Positions 3,297-64,000 of a stretch of DNA of 64,000 nt are shown one piece after another. Numbering within the stretch: the stretch's first letter is position 1; every line of letters starts with the position of its first letter. Source of the DNA: Cyanophora paradoxa CCMP329 (taxonomy: Eukaryota; Plantae; Glaucophyta); contig QPMI01000533.1 of NCBI GenBank assembly GCA_004431415.1, positions 310,001 to 374,000 of the forward strand, in the 5' to 3' direction. Made by a program: the position numbers and the translations under genes. The notes under the pieces are model-generated. The model had not been told where the DNA came from and did no database searches. It saw only the letters and a program-made list of their open reading frames with translations.

Positions 3297-5267
3297 CTAC
3301 GTTATTAGAGAGCGCGCCCCCCGTCTCGCTAGGTCCGCGTCGTACGCCTTCTTGCGGAGTGCGTCCGTGATCGCAGACCAGTCGCGTGTGCCGTTAAGAT
3401 AACCCAGGGCAAGTCCTTGGCCCAACATGAAGTAACGCTCTGGGTCCAAGTTCATGAGTTGCTGGGCCCGCTCCTCTACGCGCCGCACACGCTCCATAAA
3501 GGGGCCCTTTGCCGCAGATCCGAGCGGGTCCGCTTCTCGCTCAGCTTCGAAGAATTTCACGACATCCCCGCCCAGGTCCGAAATATCACGGTGCTGCTCT
3601 GCTATCCGTGCCTGTGCCTTGTTGACTCCAGCTGCCTGGGCATGGGCTATCGATGCCAGTTGGTTGTAATCGATTTCTTCTGCAAGGTATTTCGCAACGG
3701 CGGCGTCCCCTGCAGCGCGCGCGATTTCGGGCGATACGCTCACAAGGAATCCCTCCCGGCGAGCCCGATTGGCCGCGCGCTCCGCTTCCGTCTCCTCGTC
3801 CATGGGATCGTCTGGACTGGCTGGATTGCCTGGAGCACCGGAGCGAAGTTTCTTCAGCAGCCCCGCACGGCGAGCTTCTGTCGCCTCTTTCACCTTCTTG
3901 GCGGCCAGTTCAAGCGCATCGTTTACGTCCATGGTCGCATACCCGGGTCTCCGCCCCATATCCTTGTACGCGGCCCTGCGCTTGTCCATGGCTTCCTTCT
4001 CGCGCGGGGACGAGGGGGCGATTTCTATCCCCGCGTTTGCGAGTTGAGCCTGGACGGCGACGGGCACCTGCTCGAGCACGGCCCTTGCCGCCGCAACAGC
4101 CACCGCCTCGGCCGCCACCACCTCTGGCGGGCGCGAGGGCCCCGCCTGCGGCTCGGGTGGCGGCGGGGGCGGCGGTGGGGGTGGAGGCGGGGGCTGCTGC
4201 TCCGCTGGGGGCGCCGACGACCGGGCCACCGTGTCCGGGGGCTGCGAGGGGCCGGGCTGCGGCTGCAGCGGTGGCGTCTTCGGCCCGGGGGGCGGAGGCG
4301 GCGGAGGCGGAGGCCCCGGAGGCGGGGCCCCCCCTTCGTCGTCGGAGTCTGACTCGATCATTTCGTCTCTGGGTTCCTTGGACGGTAGGGCCTTCTGAAT
4401 GAGGGCCTCGCGCGCGCCCTTGCCCGCCTTGATTGCTCTGCCCATGGCCGCCTCCGGGAAACTGGCCTCGATGGCCTCGTTGTCCCCGTCCGTGATGCGC
4501 ACCTTCTGCTCGCGGCGGGCCTTGATGTACTTTTCCTTGTCCATCCGCTTCTTCGCCCGTCGCCTCTCCCTGGGCACGTCGCGCTGGCGGCTCTCGTCCG
4601 GCCCCGGCCCCTCGCTGTCCGAGCTCGAGGGCGGCTCGGCCTGGGCGAAGGGCTGGCGCGTGTTGCGGTTCGCGTAGTCGGGGTCGTACCTCCCTCCGAT
4701 CAGCTCCTCGGGCTTCTTGTTCTCGCGCGCGTAGATGCTCGTGGGCTTGAACTCCTCGCCGTTGATGATGTACTTGTAGTAGTAGTACGCATCCTCGAGG
4801 TTCATCGGCCCCAGCGTCTCGAGGCGCTTCTTGCGCTTCAGGAATTCGGTGATCTGATCCTCCTTCGACTTGCAGAACTCCCGCACGCCCGGCAGCACCG
4901 TCAGGTTCTTGCCGTCCACGTCGCAGGCGCCCGCTCCCTTGGCCTTCAGGTTCGCGGTGAAGGCCGACTGGCCCATCAGCCAGGCGCGGAAGCCCTCCTC
5001 GTACTCCTCGTCGAGGCTCGACTCCATCTGCTGGAACTTGTTGATGTAGTACGCGTTGGCGATGGCCTGCGCCTCCACCTCGGCGAGCTTGTCCGATTGA
5101 TCGCGCTCCTCGAACCGAATTTCCGGCGTGGCCCTCGCCAGCGCCGTCTTCATCAGCTGCTGAAAGTGCGCGTACTTGTCGCTCTCGAAGGGCGTGATGT
5201 GCGAGTCCCCGCCCCCCGGGATCGCGAGCACGTTGCGCGGCGCGAAACGCGAGGCGAGCCCCCTCAT
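3297..5267 (-). CDS. Viral protein with globular N-terminal domain and Pro-rich linker (656 aa)
   Basis: Long ORF with viral codon usage. N-domain FRAWLMGQS..LPGVREF..GPMNLEDAYYYYKYII, followed by poly-Pro tracts. Function unknown. Confidence 0.8.
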   Translation of the reverse strand: MRGLASRFAPRNVLAIPGGGDSHITPFESDKYAHFQQLMKTALARATPEIRFEERDQSDKLAEVEAQAIANAYYINKFQQMESSLDEEYEEGFRAWLMGQSAFTANLKAKGAGACDVDGKNLTVLPGVREFCKSKEDQITEFLKRKKRLETLGPMNLEDAYYYYKYIINGEEFKPTSIYARENKKPEELIGGRYDPDYANRNTRQPFAQAEPPSSSDSEGPGPDESRQRDVPRERRRAKKRMDKEKYIKARREQKVRITDGDNEAIEASFPEAAMGRAIKAGKGAREALIQKALPSKEPRDEMIESDSDDEGGAPPPGPPPPPPPPPGPKTPPLQPQPGPSQPPDTVARSSAPPAEQQPPPPPPPPPPPPPEPQAGPSRPPEVVAAEAVAVAAARAVLEQVPVAVQAQLANAGIEIAPSSPREKEAMDKRRAAYKDMGRRPGYATMDVNDALELAAKKVKEATEARRAGLLKKLRSGAPGNPASPDDPMDEETEAERAANRARREGFLVSVSPEIARAAGDAAVAKYLAEEIDYNQLASIAHAQAAGVNKAQARIAEQHRDISDLGGDVVKFFEAEREADPLGSAAKGPFMERVRRVEERAQQLMNLDPERYFMLGQGLALGYLNGTRDWSAITDALRKKAYDADLARRGARSLIT

Positions 5268-6978: not shown

Positions 6979-7455
6979 TCACACCGGATTGAGCGCGGCG
7001 TAGAGCGCGATCAGGTAGGCGTCGCAGAGGTCGTCGAGCTTGCCGTTTCGATCCGCGATGTCGGCGAGCTCGGCGGGTACGAGGTCGCGGCACTTGTCCA
7101 CGGCGCCCCGCTTGCGCTCCTTGTAGCTCGGGTTCGAGATCTTGAAGAAGTGCTTGATGGCGCGCGGGCTCACGATCCGCGCACGCCCGTACAGGAGGGC
7201 GTGGAGCGTGCACTCGATGCAGCGATTGATTCCCGTCCTCTGGCCCTCGATCGCGATCTGGTCGGGAAGGCCGAAGGCGCTATGGCCGCGAGTAACCTCC
7301 ACCAGGCGCGCCACAAGGCGGCCACAGCAGCGCGCAGACGGGAAGAGGGCGATCTTCTGCCAGTCGAGAATCTGGGATTCCTTTGTCTGCGGATCGAATT
7401 CGATGAGGCACCATGCGAAATTGATGACCCCCACATCCACGCCGAGGATCTTCAT
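6979..7455 (-). CDS. RuvC/poxvirus A22-like Holliday junction resolvase (158 aa)
   Basis: MKILGVDVGVINFAWC (Asp I), IAIEGQ (Glu), SYKERK, KLDDLCDAYL (C-terminal Asp pair). Confidence 0.9.
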   Translation of the reverse strand: MKILGVDVGVINFAWCLIEFDPQTKESQILDWQKIALFPSARCCGRLVARLVEVTRGHSAFGLPDQIAIEGQRTGINRCIECTLHALLYGRARIVSPRAIKHFFKISNPSYKERKRGAVDKCRDLVPAELADIADRNGKLDDLCDAYLIALYAALNPV

Positions 7456-7492
7456 TCCAGGGTCGCAAGAAAATCTGAATGAAGGGGGTAAA
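7456..7492. promoter_or_regulatory. 37-bp divergent intergenic region (RuvC/ATPase) with the shared AT-rich viral motif
   Basis: GAAAATCTG lies between two head-to-head ATGs; the same layout occurs at 23137-23175. Confidence 0.5.
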
Positions 7493-8563
7493 ATGGCCAA
7501 AGACCCCAAGAAGCCGAAGAAGCCGAAGGCGGCCAAGCCCCAGCCCGCCCAGCCCCAGGGCGCCGCCCCGGCCCCCGCCCCCGCCGCGGGCCAGGCCACC
7601 GGCACGGGCGCGGGCACGGCCCCCGCCGCCGGCGCCAGCTGCGCCATGGGCATGACAGAGGACGGCCAGCAGCTCACGCCCGAGCAGGTCAACGCCTTCC
7701 TCGACAACTCGAAGACGGGCGGCATCGAGCGCATGGCCTGCCTGCCCGAGCTCAAGTGGTTCGACGTGAACACCGTCAAGTCCGATGCCACGGTCGTCTG
7801 CGTCGGCAAGCGGCGCACGGACAAGTCCTTCTTCCTCCGCGATCTCATGTTCAACCTCTCGGGCACCTTCCCGGGGGGTATCGTGATCAGCCAGACCGAT
7901 CGCCTGAACGGGTACTGGAAGCAGTACATCCCGCAGCGCTTCATCTGGCCCAAGTACAACCCGGGCGTGCTCTTCCATTTATTCAGGAGGCAGCAGGCGA
8001 TCATGCAGCACAACAAGTCCGAAGACGTGCTCGCGGGAAAGGAGGATCCCGTCGACCCGCGATTTTTCGTGCTGCTCGACGACGTGATTTCCGACGCTCG
8101 GCTGCGGTACGACGAGGCCCTCAACGAGCTCTTCGTGGCGGGGCGCCACTACAAAATCATGACCCTTATCACGACGCAGTATGCCAAGGGCATCAATCCC
8201 GTCCTGCGCTCCAATACTGATCTGGCTGTCATTTTCAAGTGCTCGCAGGCGATGCAGCGCGAGGCCCTCGCAAAGGAGTGGGGCGACATCATATCCCAGC
8301 GCGCCTTCTACTACCTGCTCGATAAATACACGCAGGATAACCACTGCCTTATCATCGATTCTTCCAACAACTCTACGAACCCTCTGGACGTCCTGTACGT
8401 CTACAAGGCCGAGGAGCCGCCCCCGTTCCGAATCGGATCCAAGGAGTACTGGGAGGGCGAAACCGTCAACGGGGAAAATCTCGTGGGTCCGGACGACGGC
8501 ACGGTGGACAAGACGCTCCTCGGCATGATAGATAATTTCAGGAAGCACCGCGGCCTCGCCTGA
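7493..8563 (+). CDS. A32-like (FtsK/HerA) genome-packaging ATPase; Walker A has G>D
   Basis: VVCVGKRRTDKS, GIVISQTD..YIP, FFVLLDDVI (Walker B), LFVAGRHYKI..TTQY..INPVLRSNTD. Confidence 0.92.
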   Translation: MAKDPKKPKKPKAAKPQPAQPQGAAPAPAPAAGQATGTGAGTAPAAGASCAMGMTEDGQQLTPEQVNAFLDNSKTGGIERMACLPELKWFDVNTVKSDATVVCVGKRRTDKSFFLRDLMFNLSGTFPGGIVISQTDRLNGYWKQYIPQRFIWPKYNPGVLFHLFRRQQAIMQHNKSEDVLAGKEDPVDPRFFVLLDDVISDARLRYDEALNELFVAGRHYKIMTLITTQYAKGINPVLRSNTDLAVIFKCSQAMQREALAKEWGDIISQRAFYYLLDKYTQDNHCLIIDSSNNSTNPLDVLYVYKAEEPPPFRIGSKEYWEGETVNGENLVGPDDGTVDKTLLGMIDNFRKHRGLA

Positions 8564-9321: not shown

Positions 9322-10152
9322 CTAAAGAGTAGGAAAGAAATGCCAGTCGTTGTACTCGCATATCCTGTTCCAAATGGAATCCAGCTCCGAGAGTTTCTGC
9401 CTGCTCTTGAGCAAGGGGAAAAAGGGGAGGTGCTGGGGCAAATCTAGCAGCACGAAAATCTGCCTGAAGACGTAGTTGTAGTTGAGCATGTTCTTCCTGC
9501 CCTGCGACTTGAAGATGCTGAAGGGGACCTCCACCAGGGCGAACATCTCCTGCACCCGGTCCATGTCCTCCGCGCTCATCGGAGGCGGGCGCTCGCCCGT
9601 GATGCGCCACTTGATCTGCGCCCAGCGCTCGATGTACTTCTGCTGCTTCAGAGCCCGGAGAACTTGGCGGATATTGTCTTTGCTCCACTCCTTCCCCGCC
9701 ATGCGCCTCGCAATAGCTGCCAGCACGTCCTCGGGTACTGGAGAATCCTCCAGGCAGTGCTGCTTAAGTCGCTCAGATACGTGGTACTTCCGCAGGTAGT
9801 TGCTGTGGAGCTCGCTGACAGCCAGGGGTTGATGGTCCGGATAATAAAAATCCAGGACCAGACCGCAGCCTTGGCAAACCAGATCCCCATCCAGGTGAAC
9901 ACCAACGAGGGCGGTAGAGCCGCAATTTCCGCAGGGGACAGCGGCTTCGCCTTGGGGGCCTTGGGTGCGGCGGTTGCGCTTGCGGGGGCGCTCTCCGGCC
10001 CCGAGGTAGGAGTTGGCGATGGCGGCGGCGGCGGCGGGGTACGGTGCCGGAGTGTCGAAGTCTGGGTCCCCCTCGTCGTGAAGGATGGCGCCGTAGCGCT
10101 GGATCTGCTCGAAGTTTCGGAGGAGGAGATCGATTTCGCCAGAGTCTGCCAT
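9322..10152 (-). CDS. VLTF3: Viral late transcription factor 3 (VLTF3, poxvirus A2-like)
   Basis: Zn ribbon CGNCGS..VCQGCG, YLRKYH..ERL, and the diagnostic RKNMLNYNYVFRQIFVLL..LPFFPLLKSRQKL..DSIWNRICEYNDWHFFPT. The start could be further upstream. Confidence 0.93.
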   Translation of the reverse strand: MADSGEIDLLLRNFEQIQRYGAILHDEGDPDFDTPAPYPAAAAAIANSYLGAGERPRKRNRRTQGPQGEAAVPCGNCGSTALVGVHLDGDLVCQGCGLVLDFYYPDHQPLAVSELHSNYLRKYHVSERLKQHCLEDSPVPEDVLAAIARRMAGKEWSKDNIRQVLRALKQQKYIERWAQIKWRITGERPPPMSAEDMDRVQEMFALVEVPFSIFKSQGRKNMLNYNYVFRQIFVLLDLPQHLPFFPLLKSRQKLSELDSIWNRICEYNDWHFFPTL

Positions 10153-10383: not shown

Positions 10384-11226
10384 ATGCTCAACCTCATCGC
10401 GAGGGGCGTAGCAGCAAACAGGCAAGCCCGGGCACCGAACCCTCACCTCCGCATGGACGCCTCCGGCCGCTCCCGGGTAGAGACGCACATCGTGGTGGGC
10501 AACATCAACGACAAGGTGCTGGCGCCCGACAAGACGTGGTTCCAGAAGGTGCTGGACGCGGCGCCCGTGAGGAGACTGAACGGAGAGGATCGGCCCCAGC
10601 GCGAGTCGAATTTCATGATCACCATCCAGACCAACTACAAGCCGCGGAGCAGGGGAGAGGGCGCCAAGGTGCAGGACGCCTTTTACAGGGGGCTGGAGGC
10701 CCTCTTCTACGACGACAGGCAGCTGGCGCGGTGCATAAAGATGGGGGTGTACCCCGACAAGGCGAACCCCAAGGGCTTCGATTTCAAGTCCGACCAGTAC
10801 GACACGCACGTGGAGAAGGGCAACGCGAACATCGGCATCGAGTACGGGCCGCGGTCGGGGCGGCTCCACGCGCACATCCTGCTCACGCTGGTGCACTACT
10901 CGCGCGTGCAATTCGACGGCAAGCGGGCGTCGGATTTCCTCATCGATTTCATGCGGACGGAGGGGCAGGGCGGCCTGCCGAATTTCTACAAGGACGACTG
11001 GTTCGGGGAGGAGTACCAGAAGACGGCGGTGCGGCCGATACGGAGAAAGGACGCCCTCGGCATGCAGTGGACGGGCAAGGAGACGGGCTACAGGAAGCGA
11101 GAAACCGCCAGGCAGATGCACGTAGACGTGAAATTGCTGCCTCAGAGCAACCTCAAGGATCTGCTGCAGCTGTACATTACGAAGACGGTAGAGGCCCTCG
11201 AGACGGGCGCTGTAAAGCTCGTGTAA
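10384..11226 (+). CDS. HUH endonuclease (Rep-like), short form (280 aa)
   Basis: Motif I-like SNFMITIQTN, motif II IEYGPRSGRLHAHILL, motif III LQLYITK. Confidence 0.85.
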   Translation: MLNLIARGVAANRQARAPNPHLRMDASGRSRVETHIVVGNINDKVLAPDKTWFQKVLDAAPVRRLNGEDRPQRESNFMITIQTNYKPRSRGEGAKVQDAFYRGLEALFYDDRQLARCIKMGVYPDKANPKGFDFKSDQYDTHVEKGNANIGIEYGPRSGRLHAHILLTLVHYSRVQFDGKRASDFLIDFMRTEGQGGLPNFYKDDWFGEEYQKTAVRPIRRKDALGMQWTGKETGYRKRETARQMHVDVKLLPQSNLKDLLQLYITKTVEALETGAVKLV

Positions 11227-11249: not shown

Positions 11250-13280
11250 ATGCCTCCGAGGCGCCGAGGCCGCAAGAAGAAGCCAGAGAGCTCGAGCGAG
11301 TCAGAGGAAGAGGAGCCCACGTCCCCGTCCTCCGAGTCGGAGGAAGAAGAGGAGGAAGAGGAAGAGGAGCCGGAGCCTAAGCCGAAGGGTAAGGGCAAGG
11401 GGAAGGGAAAGGGAAAGGCAAAGGGAAACGCGCCCGATACCGGCGTGGACGAGCTCGAGACGCCCGTCGTTGAGATTCCGAAGCGATACGTGCTGGTGCA
11501 GGGCGAGGATGGCATATTCCAGCAGCAGAAGAGCATATCCGATTACATCAAGCTCTCGGCCACCAAAGAAGTTCAGATGCTCCCATCGCTGCTCGATAAA
11601 TCATACCACGAGCCCGCGACCCTCTGGAGCATCCACAGCGAAATCGAGTACGATAAACTCCCCGAGGAGCGACTGCGCGCCATACCGCGCACGTACCAGA
11701 GCGCGCAGAAATCGCCGCCGATCTGCTACCGCTGCCTTCGCCTCATGTACGAGGCCACGCCCGTGCCGAGCGCCAAGGGGGCCAACACGCCAGAGAAAAT
11801 CGCCGCGAGGGAGGCAGCGCAGGCGAGGAAGGATGCCGTGTACGAAGAGTACGTTGCAGTCATAGAGAAGGCAAACGCATGGGCAGCCAAGCAAAACGGC
11901 AAGGGGAAGAAAAAGGGTCAGGAGCCGTACCCCCTCATCAAGGACAAGAAGCCGGCGCAGGTGCCCACGGTGTCGCCCAGAAACTCGTGGCTCTGCCAGA
12001 AGTGCGTCACGCTGCTCGGCAACAAGGGCCTGCTCGTGATCTTGGGCCTGCAGAGGCGAAAGAGGGGCGACACGGCCACCGTCTCCAAGCAGACGCGCGA
12101 CCACATGGTCGAGAGCGTGCTCGGCGGGCCGAAGCCAAAGACCACGAAAAAGGCAAAGGATACGGCCGCTGACTTCGGATCGTCCGTCATCGAGCCCAAC
12201 TCCGCACAGTCGAAAATCAGAAAGGCGAAAATCGTGGCGCCGAGCATGGAAGATTTAATGGCAACCTTCGCGGACGCGCAAGAGGTGAAGCAGAACATAG
12301 AGAAGGCGAAAACGGGACTGCAGGCGGCGCAGGCAAACGGGCTGGAGGCGCTCGAGAAGGTGATCACGGAAATCAGCGAGACGGGGCGGTCGGTCTTCAT
12401 CCTCAACAAAAAGAATCCCGACGGAAGCACGCGGTACGACATACGACAGGCGCGCCAGTCGCGCTACTGGGTGCTCTTCAACACACACAAGCGCCTGGGA
12501 GAGGCGCGAGAATTCGAGGCGGCGGCGCTGCGCGACAGCCTCGCAGAGGTGCTCTCGGACGCAGAATTCTACAAGTTCATCCGCTTCAATTTGAAGGAAG
12601 AGAACGGCAAGTACAAGGACGACACGTACGCCAACGCAATCATCGGAATTCGCGTGCAAGGGGGCGTAGAGGTGGGGCCGACGGACGGGGCGCTGCACGC
12701 CCACGTGCTGGTGACGATCGATCACATATCGAATTTGCAGGTGCTGTGGGCGAATTACGACTGGGTGGTGCTGCTCAAGGAGAAGGAGCCGGGCACCACG
12801 ACGGTGTACGAGCGGCTGCACCAAATTCTGTCCGCGAAATTCACAGCGGCCGGGCAGCGCCTCGTAGACCAGAAGAGAGCAGAGGCAGGGCCGCAGCCGA
12901 GCATCGATACGATGGTGGAAATCGCAGAGCTCGAGCGCATGCTGACGGAAGAGAAGATAGGCATGGGGAAAGATCCGCCCACCGTCCTTGCGTCGCTGAT
13001 TCCGGAGGAAAATTACGCGAGCAAGCTGCAGGAGTACCTCTCGAAGACGCTGCCCGACAAGCAGAGGCGCGATTTACTGAAAGAGTGGTCGCACGCGCGA
13101 AACACGAACAACACCGACAACAACACGGACGGGTACCTCTTCACGATTTTCCAGGCGGACGCCGGCCAGGCGGACGACCCCCGCTTTGCGCCGCAGGCCG
13201 CGGAAATCGGCGACCTGAGGGCCAGGGGCCGAGGGCGCGGAAAGGGCAAGGGGCGCGGAAGGGGCAGGGGTAGCGGGTAA
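11250..13280 (+). CDS. HUH endonuclease, long form (676 aa) with acidic/KG N-terminus, split CxxC pair and RG tail
   Basis: SRYWVLFNTH, VEVGPTDGALHAHVLV, LQEYLSK; also CYRC...CQKC. Confidence 0.82.
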   Translation: MPPRRRGRKKKPESSSESEEEEPTSPSSESEEEEEEEEEEPEPKPKGKGKGKGKGKAKGNAPDTGVDELETPVVEIPKRYVLVQGEDGIFQQQKSISDYIKLSATKEVQMLPSLLDKSYHEPATLWSIHSEIEYDKLPEERLRAIPRTYQSAQKSPPICYRCLRLMYEATPVPSAKGANTPEKIAAREAAQARKDAVYEEYVAVIEKANAWAAKQNGKGKKKGQEPYPLIKDKKPAQVPTVSPRNSWLCQKCVTLLGNKGLLVILGLQRRKRGDTATVSKQTRDHMVESVLGGPKPKTTKKAKDTAADFGSSVIEPNSAQSKIRKAKIVAPSMEDLMATFADAQEVKQNIEKAKTGLQAAQANGLEALEKVITEISETGRSVFILNKKNPDGSTRYDIRQARQSRYWVLFNTHKRLGEAREFEAAALRDSLAEVLSDAEFYKFIRFNLKEENGKYKDDTYANAIIGIRVQGGVEVGPTDGALHAHVLVTIDHISNLQVLWANYDWVVLLKEKEPGTTTVYERLHQILSAKFTAAGQRLVDQKRAEAGPQPSIDTMVEIAELERMLTEEKIGMGKDPPTVLASLIPEENYASKLQEYLSKTLPDKQRRDLLKEWSHARNTNNTDNNTDGYLFTIFQADAGQADDPRFAPQAAEIGDLRARGRGRGKGKGRGRGRGSG

Positions 13281-18100: not shown

Positions 18101-20399
18101 CGACAGGCGCGTGATGGGCGACTCGGACGTTATTTTGCGCAACGCCCTGATGCCCTACGGCGACTGGAACCGCGCCACCGCCGACGCCCTTGCGGATTTC
18201 GACCTCGAGCGATTCACCACCAAAGAGCAGCGCGACGCGTACCTGGGGCGCCCGAGGGCAAGGCGGCCCGGGGTGGCCAAGGAGGCCCTCAGCGCCGAGA
18301 CGCTCTTCTCGGCGGCGGGTACGGCGAACAACGACGGCATGTCTTTCGGGGCAGCCGATTTATTTCAGGGGGCGGGCATCGACCTGGTGGGCGCCGGGCT
18401 GGGGGGTACGGGCTCGCGTGCCATGCGGCGGGCGGGCGCGGCGGCGGCGGGCCTTGGGCTGGCGACGGCGGGCGGCCTGCTCTCGGCCTACCAGGCGCTC
18501 TCGCAGGGCAAGATAGGGGAGGCGGAGTTCTTCGATACGTTCCGCGATCAGATGATCATGACGGTCGGCTCCTTTGGCCTGCAGACGGGCATGTCGTCCG
18601 CCCTGAGCGCCCTCACGAAAATGAGGATCGGCACGGTGGGCGGACTTGGCCTGTCCATCCTCGCGGGCGCCATCGCGCAGGTGATCGTGGATATCATCAA
18701 CGGGCGCAGCGCGGAAGAGATCGTGAAGAACTTCTTCAAGTACCCCGTTGACTGGGCCGCCGACACCATCCAGTTCATCGCGCAGCTCTCGCAGCAGATC
18801 TACGACTGGGGCGTCGAGACGTGGGGCGACGAGGCGAGCCAGCTGCGCAACCGAATTAATCGGCTGGAGGGCGAACTGGGCTCCGGATTTTTGGGTGTGT
18901 ACGACCCCTCGGAGGCGCGCGAAATGGCCTCGCTCTTGGCCCAGGAGCTGCGGTTAAACGAAATAAAGGAGCCGAAGGAGCTGCAGGCCTTCATTCGCGC
19001 GCTCGACAACAGCATCAACGATTACCGTACCCCCAAGGACCAGAAGACTCTGCTCGAAATTGATCGCGCAACCGTGCTCTTCCTCTCTCAGCTCACCGTT
19101 AAAATGCAGGAGGGCTTCGGGTCGACCTCGCTCGCCCTGAGTCGGCTGATGCGCGACCTTAAGCAGATGGTGAAGGAGGAGACCAAGGGGCGGAAGCGCG
19201 TCTTAATAGCCGTCTACCAGGAGGGCCTCAACAGGATCAATCACATCGAAGCCCTAAGGCGCGAATTCGGCTCGGCCATCCGTCACTCGGGCGTCTCGTC
19301 GAACGGAGGGGCCCAGGTGGCCCGCCTGGCCGACGCTAACTCGCGCCTCGAAATTCCCGGGACCTTCCGCATGCAGGATTGGTGGGAGGCCGAGGCATTC
19401 AGGAACTACGGCGCCTTCATAGACAACGGGATCAATTCGCAGAGCCCCAAGGCCAACTGGCTGGTACCCAAGGCGTACGTCGATAAATTGATGGACAGGC
19501 CCGCGGCACCCTACAGCAAGAAGATCGCCAAAGGCGTAGAGTACTGGGCGCCCGAGCCCGGTCAGCCCGTGTTTGCGGCGCAGAACTACGAGTGGCACGT
19601 GCCCTCGGGGCCCAGCCAGGCCATCAGTACCGTGGGGGTTGCCGCGCCGCAGCTGGCGGCGGTTGCGCATACGGGGGAGTACAAAGATTTAAAAGGGAAG
19701 CCGGAGACGACGTGGGATAGCATCACGGGGAAGCCGAGCACGTACCCCCACGCAACTCACAGGCACACCATCTCCGAGATCAGCGACTGGACGGCCCCCA
19801 ACTTGACGAACATCACCGTTGACTGGGAAACCCAAGTTACGGGGAAGCCTCTCGCCTTCCCCCCCACGACCCACAGTCACGCCGTGAACTGGAACACAGA
19901 TATTTACAACTTACCAGGCACCTTCCCCCCCTCTACGCACAGTCACACCGTGGACTGGAATACAGATATTTCAAACTTACCAGACACCTTCCCCCCCTCT
20001 ACGCACGGCCATTCCCAGTACGCTGATGCCGACCATGGCCACAGAAACGTGAACATGTCAGATGCTTACGTGCAACATGGCACCTTCTTGTACACGTTCG
20101 CCTCAGGCACTTATTTGGATAGCAACTTTGCGTACACGACCACGTTTACCAACATTCCTTTCGCGACTGCGTACGACACAGGAGGTGGACTCTATCCCGC
20201 AAACCCCACCCCAACCGTAATACTTACCCCATTCTTCGTACTTGGCAGCCAGGAAGTTGAGATCGGGGCCCGCCTCGTCGCGTTAGACCATACCAAATTT
20301 ACGGCCAAAGTGAGGATGAAGCCCTCGGTGTCAGTCACTATTACCGACCATGTACCGCTCAAGCTCCATTGGATTGCAGTGGGCAAGCTGGTCATATGA
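15161..20399 (+). CDS. Giant fibre-like protein (~1,745 codons), split by at least 4 frameshifts in this sequence
   Basis: Five overlapping ORF segments give HxH repeat, Gly linker, coiled coil, Gly/Ala hydrophobic block, phage-fibre repeats (WDSITGKPSTYPHATHRH; W..DI.NLP.TFPPSTHSH) and an H-lectin/gp53-like end (IPFATAY..PTVILT..LHWIAVG). Confidence 0.7.
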
Positions 20400-23876: not shown

Positions 23877-24662
23877 ATGCCTTCCACCTCCGGCACCATC
23901 GTGAAGACCGTGCTGCCCACCCCCGATTTCTATGGCGATGCCGTTGCGGCGGCCAACGCCGGGACGGATTCCGTGGTCTGGGACGGCAGCTACGCCTCCA
24001 TGCTGACCGTGAAGATCCAGAATCCGATCATGCTGCGCGTCACCTCCAACGATTTCGAGAATCCCGCCTCCTGCTCCGTGTACGTGTACTTTGACATCGA
24101 CTCGGGCGTGAGCGCGGACGAGGCGGAGGCCCTCTGGCTCTCCGGCCTCCTGAAAAAGATAGAGCCCTCTGTGCCGGATCGGCCCGCGATTCGCGTGCTC
24201 GAGCTCAAGTTCACTGCGAACACCGCCCTCACCCGCACCTTTAACGGCGGCTCCAAGACCCACATAGACGGCGCTGCCATTGACGCCACGCACAAGACCA
24301 CACAGGCAGTCCCCTTCGAAATGTACAATCTCTGGAAGATGACCGCAAAGGAAATGATGACCAACGCAACCACAGGCGGCTCGTCAGGTACTGCCTCTGC
24401 TTTCGACTCCTCGAATCCCCGTACCCAAGTCTGGCCCCGGCTCCTCTTCACGAAATTCACTTTCCGTCTGTTCAACAACATCGCCGGAATGCCTACCTCT
24501 GGAATGGTCGTGGGCTCTACTCTCATGGCTGAGCTGATCGAGGCGGAGGCTGACTACACGACTGCCACCACCAACCTTGCCAACGGCACCGCTACGAACT
24601 ACGTGGCCTGGAGCACGATTGACCGCGAGTACGACACTAAGATTCACACCACTAGCGTCTAG
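23877..24662 (+). CDS. Uncharacterised viral protein, paralog B
   Basis: 261 aa; QNP..D..SA..L..SGL.K...P..LE.KF..NPR..PR..FT.F.F..SL.AEL.E shared with paralog A. Confidence 0.75.
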   Translation: MPSTSGTIVKTVLPTPDFYGDAVAAANAGTDSVVWDGSYASMLTVKIQNPIMLRVTSNDFENPASCSVYVYFDIDSGVSADEAEALWLSGLLKKIEPSVPDRPAIRVLELKFTANTALTRTFNGGSKTHIDGAAIDATHKTTQAVPFEMYNLWKMTAKEMMTNATTGGSSGTASAFDSSNPRTQVWPRLLFTKFTFRLFNNIAGMPTSGMVVGSTLMAELIEAEADYTTATTNLANGTATNYVAWSTIDREYDTKIHTTSV

Positions 24663-25017
24663 ACTGGCTAAGCTGCACTAGTGCCTGCGCCGCCTCCATC
24701 ATCTCCGCAATCTCCTCGCTCTTCTCCTGTAAATTGGCGTACCCCCTCCTCTTCTTTCGAATCTCCGACATCGATGCCCAGCGCAGGTTCTCCCTCCTGT
24801 AGTCCAGCGGGTTGCCGTTGATGTGTTCCACGTAGCGTCCACGTGGCGACTTCCCGAGGATCAGCTGGGAGAGGTAGTGCTTGCGTCCTCCAAACGTCTT
24901 GCTCACCCTGTCCCTGTCCACTCTCCAGGGAAACTCCAAGGCACTCGGGGGTACGTCCGAGTTGACCAGGACGTTGTAGGCGACGTCTTGCGAGTCGGTG
25001 CACCGGAGCAGGGCCAT
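24652..25017 (-). CDS. HNH endonuclease-like protein (degenerate motif)
   Basis: YLSQLIL..VEHINGNPLDYRRENLRW versus the phage HNH consensus VDHINGN.LDNRR.NLR. Confidence 0.78.
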   Translation of the reverse strand: MALLRCTDSQDVAYNVLVNSDVPPSALEFPWRVDRDRVSKTFGGRKHYLSQLILGKSPRGRYVEHINGNPLDYRRENLRWASMSEIRKKRRGYANLQEKSEEIAEMMEAAQALVQLSQSRR

Positions 25018-25040
25018 TTTGCCCTAGGTTCGGAAAAACC

Positions 25041-25094
25041 TGGGACTTGGGACTTGGGACTTGGGACTTGGGACTTGGGACTTGGGACTTGGGA
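25041..25094 (+). repeat. (TGGGACT)x7.7 heptamer array
   Basis: Perfect tandem repeat read directly. Confidence 0.97.
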
Positions 25095-25519
25095 AGAGTT
25101 GAAACCCAGGTCCCGGCCCAGACTTTCTCCAGGATCAGAAATTTGTCAGACAAGTCAGGTGAGTTTTTCTACCGACTTTTTTACTCCTACCACCCCTCAT
25201 ACTCTTTTTTACTCGTAGTCTTTTTTACTCGTATCCCATCTCGTACCCTCCTTCTCTCGACATCTCGCACGAAAACTCCTACCCCTCTTCACATCCTTTT
25301 TCGGTTGCATACTCTCGTGAGCTTTCATGTCCAGTATCATGCTACAAGTCGTACACCAGTTCAGACTCTACCTCGCTTGAAATCTCACCTGGAATGTCAC
25401 CAGAAACGTCGTATCCAGAATTCCGTACCCCTTTCTAAGTCTGCCCGGTGGTTAGGGACTTGGTGCAGCAAACTCTCAGATCCGGAGAAAGTCTGGGCCC
25501 AGACCCTGAGTCTAACTCT

Positions 25520-25615
25520 TCCCAAGTCCCAAGTCCCAAGTCCCAAGTCCCAAGTCCCAAGTCCCAAGTCCCAAGTCCCAAGTCCCAAGTCCCAAGTCCC
25601 AAGTCCCAAGTCCCA
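25520..25615 (-). repeat. (TGGGACT)x13.7 heptamer array, inverted relative to the first
   Basis: (TCCCAAG)n on the + strand. Confidence 0.97.
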
Positions 25616-25688
25616 GGATCGCGCCAAGTCGTAACTGAATAGTCGGCCAATTTTTACAAGTATGTACAGTGGAATGACGCAATACTAT

Positions 25689-26741
25689 TTACAGCATCTC
25701 AAAATCAGAGTCATCATCGGAAACCAAGTCAATCGGTGCATCGGGCGCGGACTTAAGGGGAATGCGGGGAAGGGCCTGCGCTGCCTGCACTAAGTCCTGC
25801 CGCTCCTGCTCGCGCTGCGCCGCCAAGGCCGCTGCCGCCTCTGCCTCGCGCCGCTGCTGAGCCTCGACGCGCGCCCTAAGTTCCGCTGCCTCCTTCTTCT
25901 TGCGCTCGGCAATCTTGGCCAGCGTCATCTCGCGACGAAGAAGGCGCTCGTGACGCAACTTGCGCCGGAGTTCGGCCATTTCGCGCTTGGCGATGATGCG
26001 CTTCTCAATGGTCTTGACGTGCTGAGTCAGGCGCTCGGTGTAGTGTGACGTCACGCGAGAACGGGCAATGCCAGCGCCGATCTTCAAGTCTTTTTCGTGT
26101 TCCTTGGCGGGATTCTTGACTCGCTCGGAGTTGTCGGTGAATGACGTGGTCTCCATGAACTTCTTCTTGACGATTGACTTGGTCTTGATAATGCGGCGCT
26201 TGCGAGTCGGGTTTTCGTTGTCGCCTTCAGAGTCGGAAGAGGACTCAGAGTCGTATTGAATCGGCACGTCAAAGTCGATAAAGTCGTTGATGTCAGACTC
26301 GGCGTCAGAGGCCTCGGACTCGGCGTCATCGGCGGGCTCAGGGGCGGGCTCGGCGACGGGCTGAGGGGCAGATGACGACGATGACGGAGGGGGGAAATTC
26401 GTGAAGACTTGAGGGGGATAGGCCCAGGCGAGCGTCTCGGCGGCAGACTCGGCGAAAAGCTTGGGGTCGCCCCAGCCAGTGGGAGTCTTGACCCAGCCGG
26501 GGACGGGGGGCACGTCGACGGGCTCGGGCTTGGGCTCGGGCTTGGGTTGCTTGGACTTGGGCAGAAGGGAGGATACAAAGTTGAGGTTGATGGTATGGAA
26601 GCCTTCTCCGCTGTGAGCTTGGTAGAGGTACCCCAGCTTGCGGGCACGCTTCTCCATTTCACGGGTAGGCCAATCGCGGGACTTAGCCCACATCTCACGG
26701 GCCTTGGCAAGGTCCTCGACAAGCTCAGAGGGAATCGACAT
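25689..26741 (-). CDS. Hypothetical viral protein (350 aa; Pro-rich, acidic, coiled-coil)
   Basis: Long ORF; ATG 26741 directly follows an intron-like segment. Confidence 0.7.
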   Translation of the reverse strand: MSIPSELVEDLAKAREMWAKSRDWPTREMEKRARKLGYLYQAHSGEGFHTINLNFVSSLLPKSKQPKPEPKPEPVDVPPVPGWVKTPTGWGDPKLFAESAAETLAWAYPPQVFTNFPPPSSSSSAPQPVAEPAPEPADDAESEASDAESDINDFIDFDVPIQYDSESSSDSEGDNENPTRKRRIIKTKSIVKKKFMETTSFTDNSERVKNPAKEHEKDLKIGAGIARSRVTSHYTERLTQHVKTIEKRIIAKREMAELRRKLRHERLLRREMTLAKIAERKKKEAAELRARVEAQQRREAEAAAALAAQREQERQDLVQAAQALPRIPLKSAPDAPIDLVSDDDSDFEML

Positions 26742-27081
26742 CTGCGCAAAGGGAAGAGAGATCAGCAAAGGCAAAACGTGAGGTGACTGAGAGAGCGGAC
26801 TTGTGAAAATTCGGAGAGGCGGGGATTCCTTGGGCTGAGAGAAGGCGGCGAACCCGTTTCAAGAGTGAGCCAAAATGGCGGCGGACCGCGGTTTTGTGGG
26901 CGATTTTTTTCGCGGTCTAGTTCGCAACGGAAAACGTTGCCAACTGGCCTGAAAAAAGCCAAATTTAGCGTTGGGCCGAAGGCAGAAAAAGGGAGCCGGC
27001 CTGACGGAAATCGCCCGAGTGCGTCCGCCGAAGGTCGAGTCTCGGGCCGGGGGTACACCCTCAGGGGCCCCCCCTGGCCCC

Positions 27082-27552
27082 TCACCCTGGTAGTGCCCTC
27101 TCAAAGGGATTTTCGAAGCCGTACAATTCTTGGTAAGTCTCGTAATCCGGGCTGTACCCCCTCACAATCTGCGGGAGCCCCATTGAAAGCCTCCGTCTAT
27201 CCTCTCTCAATTCCCTGCGGAAAAGTCTACGGTCTTCTCGAGCTTCGCGCGTCACGCCAGCTGGGCGTGGTCTATGATTGTTAGGGTTGTCGTAGCCTGG
27301 CCCCACCAGCCTCACGAAATTTTCGCGTATGGCCTCGGGGAGACTCTGGAAACGGTTCGTCGTGTGGAACGCAATCCATTCATTGAATCGGCGCGGATAT
27401 TGACGGATGACTTCAAGCACGCCCTGTAAGTTGGGCTCTGGTGTTACGTCGGGGATGTCATGTCCCGTGAGGTGCCAACGCCAGAACTCGCGCAACCTCT
27501 CGAATGCCATATGCAACTCAAAGGGAAAATCGTAATAGAGATTGCCTGACAT
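27082..27552 (-). CDS. Hypothetical viral protein (156 aa)
   Basis: ATG 27552 preceded by the AAATTTTCG motif. Confidence 0.6.
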   Translation of the reverse strand: MSGNLYYDFPFELHMAFERLREFWRWHLTGHDIPDVTPEPNLQGVLEVIRQYPRRFNEWIAFHTTNRFQSLPEAIRENFVRLVGPGYDNPNNHRPRPAGVTREAREDRRLFRRELREDRRRLSMGLPQIVRGYSPDYETYQELYGFENPFERALPG

Positions 27553-27609
27553 TTTTCTCCCCGTCCGAAAATTTCCCCGCTTTTGAGTCCAGACTCTGAT
27601 TCCAACTCT

Positions 27610-27663
27610 TCCCAAGTCCCAAGTCCCAAGTCCCAAGTCCCAAGTCCCAAGTCCCAAGTCCCA
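27610..27663 (-). repeat. (TGGGACT)x7.7 heptamer array, third copy
   Basis: (TCCCAAG)n with the same AACTCTT...TCCCAGG flanks. Confidence 0.97.
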
Positions 27664-28296
27664 GGTCCCATTTTTCTCCCATTTCAGCCCGAGATTTTGC
27701 CCAAGTCCAAATCCGGACCCGGGATTCGAACCCTCGTTTTCGATCGATTTCACGCGTGAAAAACGCACTTTTCGGCCTTTTCGCATTTATTTTCTCTACC
27801 CCGGCCCAAAATGGACCCCCTCCCCGAAATCGCGATCGAAAATGGTCGCGATCGTCTCGTTTTCGCGATCGTCGTGATCGGAATCGTCATCGCGATCGTC
27901 GCGATCATGGTGATCACCAGCCTCGTCTACGGTACCCCCCAGCTGTGACCCGGAGGTTATAAGAACCTCCGCAATCCAAGCGTCACTTCCGAGTCTCGAG
28001 CTCTCGGAGTTGACTTTTCGCGTTTGGCCCATTGTTGGCCCTCATATATATATATCATATTCCGATTTCGAAGTTCGGTCTGATCATGACAGATATCGAT
28101 GGAAGAACAGCCAATACAAATCGGATCGGGAAGCTCAGCCGGCCGTGTCTCCGAAGTGTCCGCTTGCGTCTTAAGTAATTGGGTATAGCTTAGTGTATAT
28201 GTGTTTGTAGAAACCCGTCGACGTCACATGTAGAAACTAAAGCACCTGCGCCGGCGATCGCTTGATGAGATGGCGGAGGGTAACAGCGGCGTTTCA

Positions 28297-37470: not shown

Positions 37471-40400
37471 CTAGCAGTACTGGACGCGGACGCAGAGGCA
37501 GTCCTCGCTCTTGTCCTCCGCGTCGTTCACGAAGACGTGCACCTCCTCCACCCGCGGCACCGACTGCCCCCGCGTAGGGTTTGCAGCGGCGGGCGGGGGG
37601 GCGGGTGGGGGGGCGAGGCTCGGACCTGCGGGAGGAGGCGCAGGCCGATGTACGCCGCGCCAAACGGCTCCAGGTCGAGCCTGGCCCCGGGCCCCGGCCC
37701 GGATCAGCGGGCGGGTCCGGGGTCCGGGGCGAGGGCCGCGGTACCGGGTGTCCCGGAACTGGACGAGGTGGGGGTGGCTGGTCCGCAGCACGAAGGCCTT
37801 GCGCTCGCCGTAGGGGTTCTTGAACGATATTTTCTGCGCCCGCCGCTCGCCGCCGGGGGGGAACGCGCGGCGGACGAAGGGGGGGCGGACCTTGTTGCAG
37901 GCGATGCCGGAGGGTACAGCGACCTCGAAGGTCTTGCCTGCGCCGGCCGCTCGCCCCCGGGGCGCGGAGCGGGGGCCGGGGAGGGGTACAGGGCCGCACC
38001 GACGTAGGGGGGGCGAGCGTTGGTCTCGACAAGCCACGCGCCGACGAGCTCCCGAACCGCGACGTCTGCGGGGCGGCCCGCTCGGCGGGTCCCCGGGGGG
38101 TACGGGAGGGCGAGGGGGGTACCGACGACGTGGAGGAGGACGTCGGCGGGCCCGACGCGGAGGGGGCGGTACGCCATCGAGAGCTCGTTGACGCTGCGGC
38201 GAAAGTGGGCGGGGGAGGGGGGTACAAGTGCCGGGGAGCGGCGGACCTGCCGGGGACGAGGGCGAAGGGGGCGGAGGGCTGGACCTGCACCAGGTCCGGG
38301 TTCGAGGAGTGGACCTGCGGGGGTACACGTGAGTGGGGGGCAGGCAAGGGAGGGCCGGTGGGGGGTACGAGCCTGGACGGTGCGCGGGGCGGCGGCGGCG
38401 GGGATGAAGAGCGAGGCGCGGTGCGTCTGCGGGGCCGGTCAGCGTACCCCTCGCCCCTGGGGCGGGGTACGCGCCTGGCCGACGGGGGAGGAGACGTCCA
38501 TCGAGTGGAGGGTCGAGACGAAGACCTGCCACACCTGTACCCCCGCCCAGCCCCATGAGCCGGGCCGCGCGCGGGGACGGGCGGGGCGGGGCGGGGCAGG
38601 GCGGGCCTCGTGGAGGAACGAGTGGGCGGCGTCGTGGTAGACGAGGAGGAAGAAGCGGCCGACGTGGGGCCAGCTCCCGCACCGGTACTTCACGAACACG
38701 TCCTGCCCGCCCCGGCGTCAGGAGGCGGCGGGGCGGGGGGTGCAGGGCGGGGCGCCCGGCTCGCCTGGCGCTTGGCGCCGTTCTCGGTGCGGACGACGAC
38801 GTTGGCGTGGGAGCAGCGGACGTGCTTGTAGCCGCGGCCCGCCGGGTCGAGCGCCGCCAGCACCTGCTCCGCCGGCGTCGACGCCGCCGTCACCTCGATC
38901 CCCAGCCGCGTCTGTCCGCCGCCCCCGTCAGCGCGCTGGGGTACAGGGTACAGGGATGCCGAGTGGAAGGGGCTACCTTGAAGAAGTCGTTCTCGGGGTG
39001 GTGGAAGCGGAAGGTGCGGTCGGGGGCGAAGGGCTGCCGGCGCGTCAGGGGGGGAGGGGGGGGGAAGGGGCGGGGGGTACGGGGCGGGGACCTGGGGGGC
39101 TACGTGGACGCGGACGACGTAGACGAGGCGGCCGGCGCGGTTGTAGAAGGAGACGTCCGTCCGGCGCGGGCGGATCGGCTCGTCGGGGCCCTCCTCCCCG
39201 CCCCGCTCCTGCCGCACCCGCGGCGTCGCCTCCTCGCCGCCCGCCGCGCCGTCGCCCAGCATCGCCGCCCGCAGCGTCCCGCAGCTGAAGCTCTGGAAGA
39301 CGAACGGCACGTACACCGTCTCCCGCGCGTGCACCAGCAGCTGCGGGGGGTACCCCGTCAGGTTGGAGGGGGGAAGAAGCGGAGCGGGGGGTACCTCGTT
39401 GTGCTCGGAGACGAGGTCGTCCTCGAGCGGCGTCGTGAGCCCGCGCACGCGCTTGTGGGCCCGCCACTCCCTCGTGTCCCGCACGATCCTGTACCCCCCG
39501 GGGGCCGTCGGCCGCGGCCGGGCGGGGGGAGGGAGTACCCCCCGCACCGAAGATCGGGGTCGTCGAAGGAGATGATGAAGCAGTCGTCGTGGGGGTACGG
39601 GTTCACGAACGCAATCTCGAAGAAGCTGCGCGGAGGGGGTACGGCGATCGCTTCGCGGCGCGGGGACCGCAGCCTCGAGGGGTACGGACCAGGTGCGACC
39701 GAAGGAGGGGTAGATGGTGTGGACGGTGGTGAGGCTCTGCATGAGCATGTCCTGGATCACCTGCTTCTTCCGCCTGCGCCCCGCCCCGCCGCGCCGCGCC
39801 GCTCAGCCGCGTCGGCGACTCGCACAAAGCATCGGGCGGGCGGTGCGCACCGCTCGCGCCAGTTCTGGATCGCGCGCAGGTTCCGCTCCCGCTGGCGGAT
39901 TTCCTGCTCCCGCGCCATAGGCCGCCTCTCCACCCCCGACCTGCGCGGAGCCCGTCCTTCAGACCCCGCCGGCCCGCGCCCCTTCCCCCCCTCCGGGATC
40001 GACGTACCCCTCCGAGTCGGCGTAGCGCGACTCCTCCTCGCGGATCGCGTCGGCGAGCTCCCGGTCGCTCTCCTAAACGACGCGGGTTCGAATCCCGGCG
40101 ATGAAGTTCGGAGCGGAGAGGGGGCGGGCGGGCAGACCTTGACGGGGCGCGCGCGGTGCGTGCGGACGCGCCCGGGCTCCGTGGGGACCTCCGTCCCGAG
40201 GCGAGAGACCGGAATAACGGCCAGCGAGGAGCGCACGCGGGGCGCGACGGGCGCCGGCCGCCCCTCCGCATCCTTCGCCGGCCTGGGGCCCTCTGCGCCC
40301 CCGCGGATCAGAGAATGAATGACTAAGTAAAGAGAGCCGGCGCCGCGGACGGACCGCTCATGTGGCCCTCGTTGGAGATGCGGAGCTGCAGGCGGCCGCG

Positions 40401-41990
40401 GGCCTGCGGGGCGCCGTGCGCCTTGTACACGGGCCCCGGCGTCGCGTTGACGCCCCCGGGCCGCAGCGGCGTGCTGCGCGCCGACAGCCCGTCCTCCTCC
40501 TCCGGCGGCGGGCCGTACGGCGTGTGCACGATCTCGAACTCTGCCGGCGCGCCGTCAGCTGCAGGGGCGCCCGGAGCATCGCGGTACCCCCCTGCGGACC
40601 CTGCGTGATCTGTACCGCCTCCTTGTGCTTGCGCATGAGCGACTTGAGCGGGATGCGGACGGTGCCTGCCCCCGCCGGCGTCGGTCGGGAGGGAGGGAGG
40701 GGTACGAGGTCTCGGGGCCGAGGGGAGGGGTACCGATAAGGAAGAGCGAAGTGGCGTCCCACACGTCAATCTCGAGGGCCTTGTCCCGCAGGTACTGCGA
40801 AGGGGGTTACGACGTTAGGTTCAGCGGGCGGGAGAAAGATTGGAGAAAGGGGGTACCTCGGCGAAGACGCGGCACTCGTCCGCGCGCGCGAACTTGAGCA
40901 GGTCGACCTGCGGCCGCGGGTTCGATTCCGGGCGGGAACCGTTTCGAAGAGGATAGGGGTACGGCGCGCCTTGTACTTGATGGGGAGGCCCGGGCCGCCG
41001 CTGTTCTCCTGCTCGGCCGAGCGGACCAGGATGCGCGGCGCCGTGGGCGGCGCCGAGGCCGCCGGCTTGGCCAGCATCAGGGGCTCCGTGACCACTGGGG
41101 CGTAGTGGTAGAACTGCAGGGCGGACCAGCGTCACGCAGCGGCGCGGCCGGCGGAAAGGGGCCCGCGCGGGTTCGAACCTGGAACGTGAAGTAGACGGAC
41201 TAGGGGGCGTTGCTGTGGGCGGGGGGGGCGAGCGCGAGGAAGTGGATCGTGATGTCGTTCCTCTGCGGGGTACCGGTTTGTCCCCGGGGTACCGGAGTAG
41301 GGTTTACTCGGGGGTACGCGGACCTGCCGGGGATCGTTCTCCTCGAGGAGCACGTCAGCAGTGCGGGGGCTCCGCGGGTACTCGGATCTGCGGACGAGAA
41401 GGGACGTGAGGGGCGGCGGGGAGGCGGTCGGGAAGGCGGGGCACGCATTACGCGGAGGGCGGCGATGGGGTGGCGGGCGACGGCGCCGGCGCCCTCCTCG
41501 TCCTCGGGGGGCGCCTCCCCCGCGTCGGTCAGGCCAGCCTTCCACAGGCGCGCCCGGCCCGCCCGCGTCAGCGCCCCCGCCTGGCCCCCGGCCTCTGCCC
41601 CCGCCCGCCCTCAGCGCGGGCGGCCGCGGCGGAGCGCGGGCCCGGGACGGGTACGGCGCACGGTCGGAGACGAACGCGGCCTCGGGGATCGAAGCGTAGA
41701 GGCGGGAGCCGTCGAGGGACATCGAAGCCGTCAGCTCCGTCTCCTCGGGGTCCCTGCACCGGCGTCGGGCGGGGGCGGGGCGGCGGGCGGGGCGGGCGCA
41801 CGTCTGGGTGCCGGTCTCCTCCAGGTCGACCTTGCGGGCGGGCACGAGCGGCCGCATCGCCTCCCACACGCGCCCGCCCTCCGCCGGCGGCGCTGGCGCA
41901 GGGGCTGGAGCGGCGAGGGGCTCGTTGGCGAGTGCCGGCGCCAGGGCGGGCGGGGAGGGCGGCGCGGCGGCCTTAACCGGAGGCGCCGCG
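37471..41990 (-). CDS. NPHP4: Nephrocystin-4 (ciliary transition zone), multi-exon, C-terminal part only; copy 1
   Basis: Exons RNDITIHFLA, LEIDVWDATSLFLIG, GRLQLRISNEGH, TTVHTIYPSFG/FFEIAFVNPY, WQVFVSTLHSMDVS, KISFKNPY, EVHVFVNDAEDKSEDCLCVRVQY*, colinear with known NPHP4. Confidence 0.88.
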
Positions 41991-63900: not shown

Positions 63901-64000
63901 GCCGCAGCGGCGTGCTGCGCGCCGACAGCCCGTCCTCCTCCTCCGGCGGCGGGCCGTACGGCGTGTGCACGATCTCGAACTCTGCCGGCGCGCCGTCAGC
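60902..64000 (-). CDS. NPHP4: Nephrocystin-4, copy 2 (3' part; continues beyond window)
   Basis: Highly similar, colinear copy of 37471-40560 including introns and 3' flank. Confidence 0.88.

Follow-up and report, generated by a model that had tools for sequence, protein, structure and literature searches.

Mriyaviruses have been proposed as the closest living relatives of the giant-virus ancestor. In the accessible text of PMC11253617, members of the class Mriyaviricetes have no polymerase, the start of replication by an HUH endonuclease is proposed, and the Rep of SIRV1 is the best match of the mriyavirus HUH protein. HUH-initiated rolling-circle replication has been inferred for these viruses, which are integrated yet lack an integrase; the class paper names no origin, its accessible text (PMC11253617) containing no mention of a replication origin, hairpin, tandem repeats or integration. 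No description of a mriyavirus origin, or of the arrays reported here, was found in the literature checked; relevant material may stand in the supplements to PMC11253617 and to the Phaglo-G preprint. As far as the available parts of the sources go, the iterons of begomoviruses are 5–8 nt long (PMC10880892) and are read by the Reps through a variable segment beside motif 1 (PMC10880892, PMC2974675), and the Rep of AAV binds a tandem repeat in the ITR (PMC5511163). From what is accessible of the respective reports, a Mriyaviricetes region has already been noted in a glaucophyte (10.1101/2025.04.19.649669), and viral endogenizations in Cyanophora paradoxa are in print (PMC12344493).

The locus described here lies in a window of 64,000 nucleotides from C. 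paradoxa CCMP329 (contig QPMI01000533.1, positions 310,001 to 374,000 of the forward strand), to which all coordinates refer. Judged by its genes, the element that carries the locus is an endogenous gamadvirus-like mriyavirus:

1884–3254, minus strand: major capsid protein (PF16903; Pfam)
6979–8004, minus strand: ORF with an A22/RuvC-like resolvase domain (PF04848; Pfam)
7493–8563, plus strand: A32 packaging ATPase (PF04665, below cut-off, E 0.002; Pfam)
9322–10152, minus strand: VLTF3-like late transcription factor (PF04947, E 3e-24; Pfam)
10384–11226, plus strand: short HUH endonuclease (motif I at residues 77–81, H162/H164, Y264/K267)
11250–13280, plus strand: long HUH protein with a C-terminal HUH domain

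The NCLDV-type genes recognized by Pfam (capsid, A32, VLTF3 and RuvC/A22) correspond to the gene set of the 'Gamadviridae' as given in the accessible text of PMC11253617, and the A32 ATPase is about 40–53% identical to gamadvirus-like environmental ATPases. No polymerase or integrase was seen in the viral part of the window; the left end of the provirus lies outside it. All 15 capsid homologs found belong to one EukProt proteome, labelled Cyanophora paradoxa, in which capsid homologs lie on 30 named contigs, and a capsid search of viral contigs and GenBank phages gave no match. An environmental sequence from IMG/VR (L003), with a close gamadvirus-like ATPase and a VLTF3 remnant beside eukaryotic-looking sequence, may be another endogenous copy.

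Several further features of the window were recorded. Downstream of the capsid gene, an insertion at 1–1690, by its appearance possibly an LTR-retroelement, breaks the next viral gene, whose similarity to the sibling protein P0003 ends near 1676; a long open minus-strand frame lies in the insertion below 1140. A 997-aa viral ORF contains a 66-bp tandem repeat of 2.3 copies (19855–20006). A (TA)n tract at 28042–28060 may mark the right proviral boundary. In the host part, a 1.92-kb unit is present as three near-identical tandem copies (51500–57100), the blocks at 37900–40560 and 61300–64000 repeat one another 23.4 kb apart at 90–98%, and nine ORFs had no Pfam match.

The HUH and YxxK motifs are intact in both the short and the long HUH protein, and H162, H164, Y264 and K267 are invariant in all 14 aligned sequences. 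The first Atlas match was a rolling-circle Rep cluster (0.95), environmental HUHs were matched by tblastn down to E 7e-11, and motif I, ESNF[FM]IT, is common to environmental gamadvirus members. PDB sequence searches with the HUH profiles returned no match. After a single-sequence model had been discarded (pLDDT 36), a ferredoxin-like core was predicted for the short HUH at a mean pLDDT of 64. The fold search recovered the IS200 transposase 2ec2 (Z 7.1, rmsd 5.7, 119 aligned) and parvovirus NS1 domains (Z 5.5), level with unrelated ferredoxin-like folds; all HUH proteins scored Z ≤7.1, and SIRV1 Rep was not among the best 50 fold matches listed. The short HUHs of the sibling copies (n = 11, excluding the 209-aa fragment P0065) are 94–99% identical and split 7:4 at residues 62–69, a segment modelled, at a block pLDDT of 79, as a β-hairpin that enters the strand of motif I. 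In the 11 environmental gamadvirus HUHs inspected, indels are frequent ahead of motif I, so that the two alleles may be neutral.

The two facing repeat arrays lie in the gap at 25018–25688. With 671 nt, it is the largest gap among the 26 curated viral ORFs, as the preliminary description had stated; the second largest spans 498 nt and contains an 87-aa ORF. The repeats and the core between them are arranged as follows:

25039–25094, plus strand: array of module 1, 7.7 copies of the heptamer unit A, TGGGACT (sequence, TRF)
25095–25139, plus strand: inner flank of module 1, mirrored in module 2
25140–25475, no strand: 336-nt core, T/C-rich, without an ATG-started ORF of at least 100 aa
25476–25519, minus strand: inner flank of module 2, with a 14-bp palindrome absent from modules 1 and 3
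25520–25617, minus strand: array of module 2, 13.7 copies of unit A, inverted relative to module 1 (TRF)
27589–27670, minus strand: module 3, inner flank and array of 8.7 copies, oriented as module 2

The preliminary description had given two oppositely oriented arrays, of 7.7 and 13.7 perfect heptamers, with about 45 bp of mirrored inner flank. TRF recovered both arrays at a purity of 100% (TGGGACT ×7.7 at 25041–25094; TCCCAAG ×13.7 at 25520–25615), and the mirrored flank proved to be part of a 103-nt inverted repeat at 91% identity (25038–25139 versus 25476–25576, E 5e-32; a second estimate gave 93 nt at 90%). The two facing arrays are real; a third array with a shared flank had been overlooked. 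It lies at 27610–27670 (×8.7, purity 98%, TRF), and module 3 as a whole matches the module 2 arm over 82 nt at 95%, its last unit and some 25 nt of its flank being shared. Module 3 follows module 2 as a direct repeat at a distance of 2.05 kb and is enclosed by a 12-bp direct repeat (27550 and 27669). The repeated entity is therefore a module of array plus flank, with module 1 pointing right and modules 2 and 3 pointing left. A scan for inverted short-unit pairs gave one pair in the viral part of the window and none in its 36 kb of host DNA, which likewise holds no TGGGACT-type array.

The core had been described as a pyrimidine-skewed spacer of about 340 bp. Its length and composition (336 nt, 64% pyrimidine) agree with this, but the skew is mild, being equalled in 6% of viral windows of the same size. 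A 16-bp direct repeat at 25203–25233 varies in copy number. A stop-free plus-strand frame of 222 codons crosses the core; it has no ATG and was not accepted as a gene. Neither a conserved stem-loop nor a nick motif was found, the inner flanks and core folding like shuffled sequences (z −0.6 to +1.4). The whole region folds strongly (z −14), which reflects only the arms. A search of Rfam over 24600–28200 gave a single chance match of 13 nt (E 0.56).

Two candidate splice donors lie in the core:

25156–25164, plus strand: donor-like CAG/GTGAGT, GT from 25159
25383–25391, minus strand: second donor-like site, GT at 25388

The first, already reported as a perfect donor, is the sole CAGGTGAGT in the 62 kb counted; the second had been overlooked. 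The donor at 25159 lies 58 nt from the end of array 1, and the ATG of a 156-aa ORF lies at the same distance of 58 nt in module 3. From this spacing and their resemblance, the donor may be a remnant of the shared module. In each of the public runs X15 and X16 a single piece spans the core, and neither donor shows a joint or a loose end; as both runs are only guessed to be RNA, their one-piece cores neither prove transcription nor rule out splicing. No RNA data set was listed as containing the locus, and in this weak test a spliced non-coding RNA gained no support. A GT..AG joint at 25230–25360 in run X2 was rejected as an intron: the run is of the DNA type, and unknown letters between the two ends point to a variant core.

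The genes next to the modules and their start motifs are the following:

24652–25017, minus strand: HNH endonuclease gene (PF13392, E 2e-7), with two allelic types in siblings
25031–25038, minus strand: T-tract start motif for HNH, adjoining array 1 on its outer side
25689–26741, minus strand: 350-aa ORF, its 3' end towards array 2
27082–27552, minus strand: 156-aa ORF with a T-tract motif, its ATG 58 nt inside module 3
27811–27948, plus strand: 45-aa hydrophobic ORF with a T-tract motif, probably the last viral gene

The T-tract occurs 10–35 nt upstream of 15 of 24 viral ORFs, compared with 5% of random positions, and touches the outer edges of arrays 1 and 3. This pattern favours the main rival explanation, in which the arrays are purely transcriptional upstream elements, repeated sites at which a host or viral factor binds and activates or silences the neighbouring genes. 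In the ancestral arrangement, HNH would have lain on one side and the small hydrophobic ORF on the other, and the 2 kb that now separate modules 2 and 3 would have come in later; the direct repetition of these modules at a distance of 2.05 kb suits such a history. Nevertheless, the longest array, array 2, has no T-tract outside it and faces a 3' end, the remaining viral genes use the T-tract without arrays, and the factor is hypothetical. We consider a purely transcriptional role rather unlikely.

The 350-aa ORF has no T-tract. A strong acceptor-like sequence stands directly before its ATG (26742–26890), and a GCCGCCATTTTG motif lies upstream, which we presume to be YY1-like; the ORF is possibly an early gene transcribed by the host polymerase. 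Its N-terminus differs in two siblings. For the 156-aa ORF, no homolog and no usable Atlas match were found. A 234-aa reading through module 3 was discarded: its eight matches each cover 9–26% of the query, and seven of them carry a period-7 peptide repeat. The HNH nucleases of the siblings fall into two types (13 and 5 accessions) that differ at 19 of 121 positions and reassort with the HUH and capsid types across sibling contigs. No tie between HNH type and unit type was found; that the HNH type reads the arrays may be kept as a minor idea.

Four public runs were aligned to 25100–25512, an interval that covers the core only; X2 and X3 are of the DNA type. At least three core haplotypes are present in both X2 and X3, at a summed core depth of about 4200–5000 in X2 and 1600–1850 in X3, a depth that does not equal copy number. 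Among the pieces listed (18 of 62), those overrunning the left edge of the core do so by 27–29 letters, as expected for pieces that stop in the array. The core is multi-copy, and its copies would presumably be located within proviruses. In four of the seven named copies of the 350-aa gene in siblings, HNH is the next gene model; the gene-free gap has thus been kept.

A second version of the module was seen at loose ends in these runs. Its heptamer is unit B, TTGGTGC, and the last unit and the flank are changed as well. In X2 the unit B version forms the right arm, at a depth of 554 out of about 4970 (about 11%); it forms the left arm in X16, whose record appears to finish in a normal right arm. 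In X2 the depths sum to 4975 on the left and 4970 on the right, and a branch at 25164 is present in X2, not in X3; together these suggest that the left arm of the X2 variant has stayed normal. The core in X16 carries variants of the major right-hand haplotype of X2, and its B flank differs by one letter. No unit B arm was found among the X3 pieces listed, though the minor HUH allele accounts for 4 of 11 sequences. The arrays can be taken as genuine: they are associated with the virus, multi-copy and present in two natural versions.

These variants bear on the idea that 25039–25617 is a foldback or MITE-like element, or a recombination cassette that moves or flips, with module 3 as a stray end. 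Terminal inverted repeats do flank a non-coding body of 580 bp, module 3 sits within its 12-bp direct repeat, and the B-left/A-right arrangement in X16 could have arisen by inversion of an A-left/B-right copy. The haplotype variants in the X16 core and the single-letter difference in its B flank argue against a simple flip, however, and arms of differing types (A and B) are poor candidates for paired ends. Moreover, no target duplication of 2–12 nt surrounds modules 1–2 or 1–3, and the 36 kb of host DNA contain no copy. A mobile or invertible element is, on this evidence, distinctly improbable.

Unit B also speaks to the earlier proposals of telomere mimicry and G-quadruplex formation, by which the arrays would serve integration at telomeres, in the manner of HHV-6 and Marek's disease virus. 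The G3N4 spacing of unit A gives a borderline G4Hunter score of 1.15–1.2, and in the available parts of the literature checked no telomere repeat of Cyanophora was found. Unit B has no GGG and scores 0.57, so that the quadruplex proposal holds at best for unit A and fails for unit B. The telomerase of Glaucocystis, the only glaucophyte tested, makes TTAGGG (PMC3622300, the accessible text of which does not mention Cyanophora), and the arrays have an internal position: at least 36 kb of host DNA that is not telomeric follow on their right. Being borderline in A and lost in B, the quadruplex is not a kept property of the arrays, and neither is telomere mimicry; the latter proposal is not supported by these data, and a telomere mimic or quadruplex element for integration is scarcely credible.

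Related layouts were sought in 156 partial gamadvirus-like loci from IMG/VR and metagenomes, forming 78 clusters at 95% ATPase identity. Inverted short-unit pairs were detected in three of them (L232, L161 and L211), the hexamer pairs of L161 and L211 not being counted as analogues. A non-coding pair comparable to that of Cyanophora is found in 1 of 78 ATPase clusters and in none of 13 HUH-centred loci, counts that are limited by short-read contigs and 20-kb windows. Control scans gave none in 83 giant-virus loci and none in three rounds of shuffling; a first ATPase-based scan, 79 of whose 80 loci were giant viruses, supplied controls. By a strict filter, a long perfect array was absent from all 156 gamadvirus-like loci.

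In each of the two non-coding modules of the L232 locus, an AT-rich core is bordered on both sides by two or three octamers. T-tracts lie outside all four arrays, and both modules stand between divergent genes, one pair being VLTF3/YqaJ. The T-tracts, the AT-rich core and the position between divergent genes count in favour of the purely transcriptional explanation given above. A gapped-pattern search for relatives of L232 returned no match, the gap of the pattern being too short. The L257 locus has a non-coding array of 19 bp ×8.3 at 19654–19833; a 1009-aa ORF that weakly matches DUF927 lies downstream of this array, which looks like a plasmid iteron. A 23-bp array stands at the contig end of L121. 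Two further loci, L226 (271–314, 1201–1244) and L220 (431–472, 1583–1624), share an inverted repeat of 40–44 bp with a small hairpin and a C-run, seen in no other locus examined. It encloses 0.9–1.1 kb with one ORF, between divergent genes, and is a further candidate for an origin or mini-element.

Similar short arrays also occur in unrelated viruses (L001, L002, L242 and L243). The octamer array of L232 recurs in an unrelated phage-like contig and in a giant-virus contig, which makes likeness of unit sequence weak evidence. In the unrelated phage-like L242, inverted CTTCGAGA repeats surround an AT-rich core at 600–780 in the layout of L232. An exact-array scan of IMG/VR gave two matches that are unrelated to the Cyanophora virus beyond the repeat by tblastx and blastn; they were taken as convergent. 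Such exact or related arrays in phage and giant-virus contigs would be expected if the repeats were functionless minisatellites that arose by neutral slippage and spread by gene conversion. Set against this, the three copies have a common non-repetitive flank and a unit purity of 98–100%, and in the variant, whichever arm it occupies, the unit has changed along with the flank. Neutral slippage is accordingly a very unlikely account of the modules.

The position of module 3, about 370 nt from the (TA)n tract at about 28042 that may form the proviral boundary, raises the question of genome ends. The modules could be genome-end, packaging or concatemer-resolution signals acted on by the A22 resolvase and HUH, and could also serve integration without an integrase. 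In the parts accessible, integration genes are reported absent from mriyaviruses (10.64898/2026.06.19.733378), and in rudiviruses terminal repeats are served by a Rep paired with a resolvase (PMC5062984). However, modules 1 and 2 have an internal position, virus-type genes lie beyond all three modules, and the layout is unlike the spacer-less palindrome of an end-to-end junction. We give this explanation only a slim chance.

The explanation that we prefer, tentatively, is that the modules form an iteron-type control region, comprising an origin and adjoining promoters, to which a viral HUH protein would putatively bind. The virus-linked cis element put forward in the preliminary description as an iteron or origin candidate is thereby supported indirectly, by the multi-copy core, the HNH/350-aa adjacency in four of seven copies and the reality of both HUH genes. 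The origin reading is favoured by a polymerase-less class of virus combined with two HUH genes whose motifs are intact, and by arrays that occupy the largest gene-free gap. The unit of 7 nt falls within the size range of begomovirus iterons, and the arrays provide iterated sites of 5–8 nt in the main intergenic region. The unit, the last unit and the flank change together, a coordinated change as for a binding code. The 7:4 split of HUH alleles at the hairpin is a further point in favour, since begomovirus Reps hold an iteron-related domain next to motif 1. So are the inverted-array layout, present twice in L232, and the 19-bp ×8.3 array of L257.

Other observations weaken the origin reading. 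There is no conserved stem-loop or nick motif, which lowers the case for an origin of the begomovirus type, not for one that works like it. The presence of three modules instead of one, and of two in L232, both between divergent genes, suits promoters. Comparable pairs are scarce (one of 78 ATPase clusters, none of 13 HUH-centred loci), similar short arrays exist in unrelated viruses, and the fold search reached only Z ≤7.1. Arrays of 7–14 units exceed typical iteron sets.

In the proposed mechanism, HUH oligomers would bind the heptamers, and melting and nicking would take place in the T/C-rich core or in the flank directly next to the array on its inner side, as with the AAV Rep-binding repeats beside their nick site. 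The bound protein might also regulate HNH and the module 3 genes, the T-tracts of which touch the arrays. The hairpin before motif I may determine which unit is read. An extension of this model is a lock-and-key code in which co-resident provirus lineages use heptamer A or B, read by different HUH hairpin alleles, with hybrid A/B origins formed by module exchange; the code would set which silent copies replicate in trans, and the locus would be the first mriyavirus origin to be identified. We regard this extension as unlikely in its entirety. A putative tie between HUH allele and unit is weakened by the lack of a B arm among the listed X3 pieces and by the reassortment of HUH and HNH types. 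With this locus, a culturable alga provides a defined substrate together with natural variants of both partners, two of the sequence and two alleles of the protein, and the rolling-circle proposal for mriyaviruses thereby becomes directly testable.

Compared with the 'Gamadviridae' (Mriyaviricetes; Pleurochrysis endemic viruses and Phaglo-G) as described in the accessible text of PMC11253617, the Cyanophora provirus has the capsid, A32, VLTF3 and A22-like resolvase in common, together with adjacent short and long HUH genes and no polymerase or integrase seen. It differs in its arrays, most environmental loci having none in their available parts. The telomeric repeats of HHV-6 and avian alphaherpesviruses, in the sources' accessible text, are likewise G-rich short tandem repeats in an integrating virus. 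Those repeats equal the host telomere and flank the genome ends. The Cyanophora arrays, in contrast, are not TTAGGG, are internal and have a GGG-less variant.

The rudivirus SIRV, judged from the accessible part of PMC5062984, likewise has dsDNA, a similar size, an HUH Rep that stands alone and a resolvase of Holliday junctions; its nick site is at the hairpin ends of long terminal repeats, whereas any nick site of the Cyanophora provirus is putative. The AAV ITR resembles the locus in having an HUH Rep-bound tandem repeat within an inverted repeat (accessible text of PMC5511163), binding by HUH being putative here; it differs in its 4-nt units and hairpin genome ends, the Cyanophora units being 7 nt long and internal, without a T-shaped hairpin. 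The begomovirus intergenic region, as far as the available descriptions go, shares variable iterated sites of 5–8 nt beside a promoter and an HUH Rep with a variable segment. Begomoviruses differ in having ssDNA, few iterons and a conserved stem-loop nonanucleotide, compared with 7–14 perfect units, three modules, no conserved hairpin and putative binding in the Cyanophora provirus. Despite the missing stem-loop, the locus could plausibly work like this known kind of origin.
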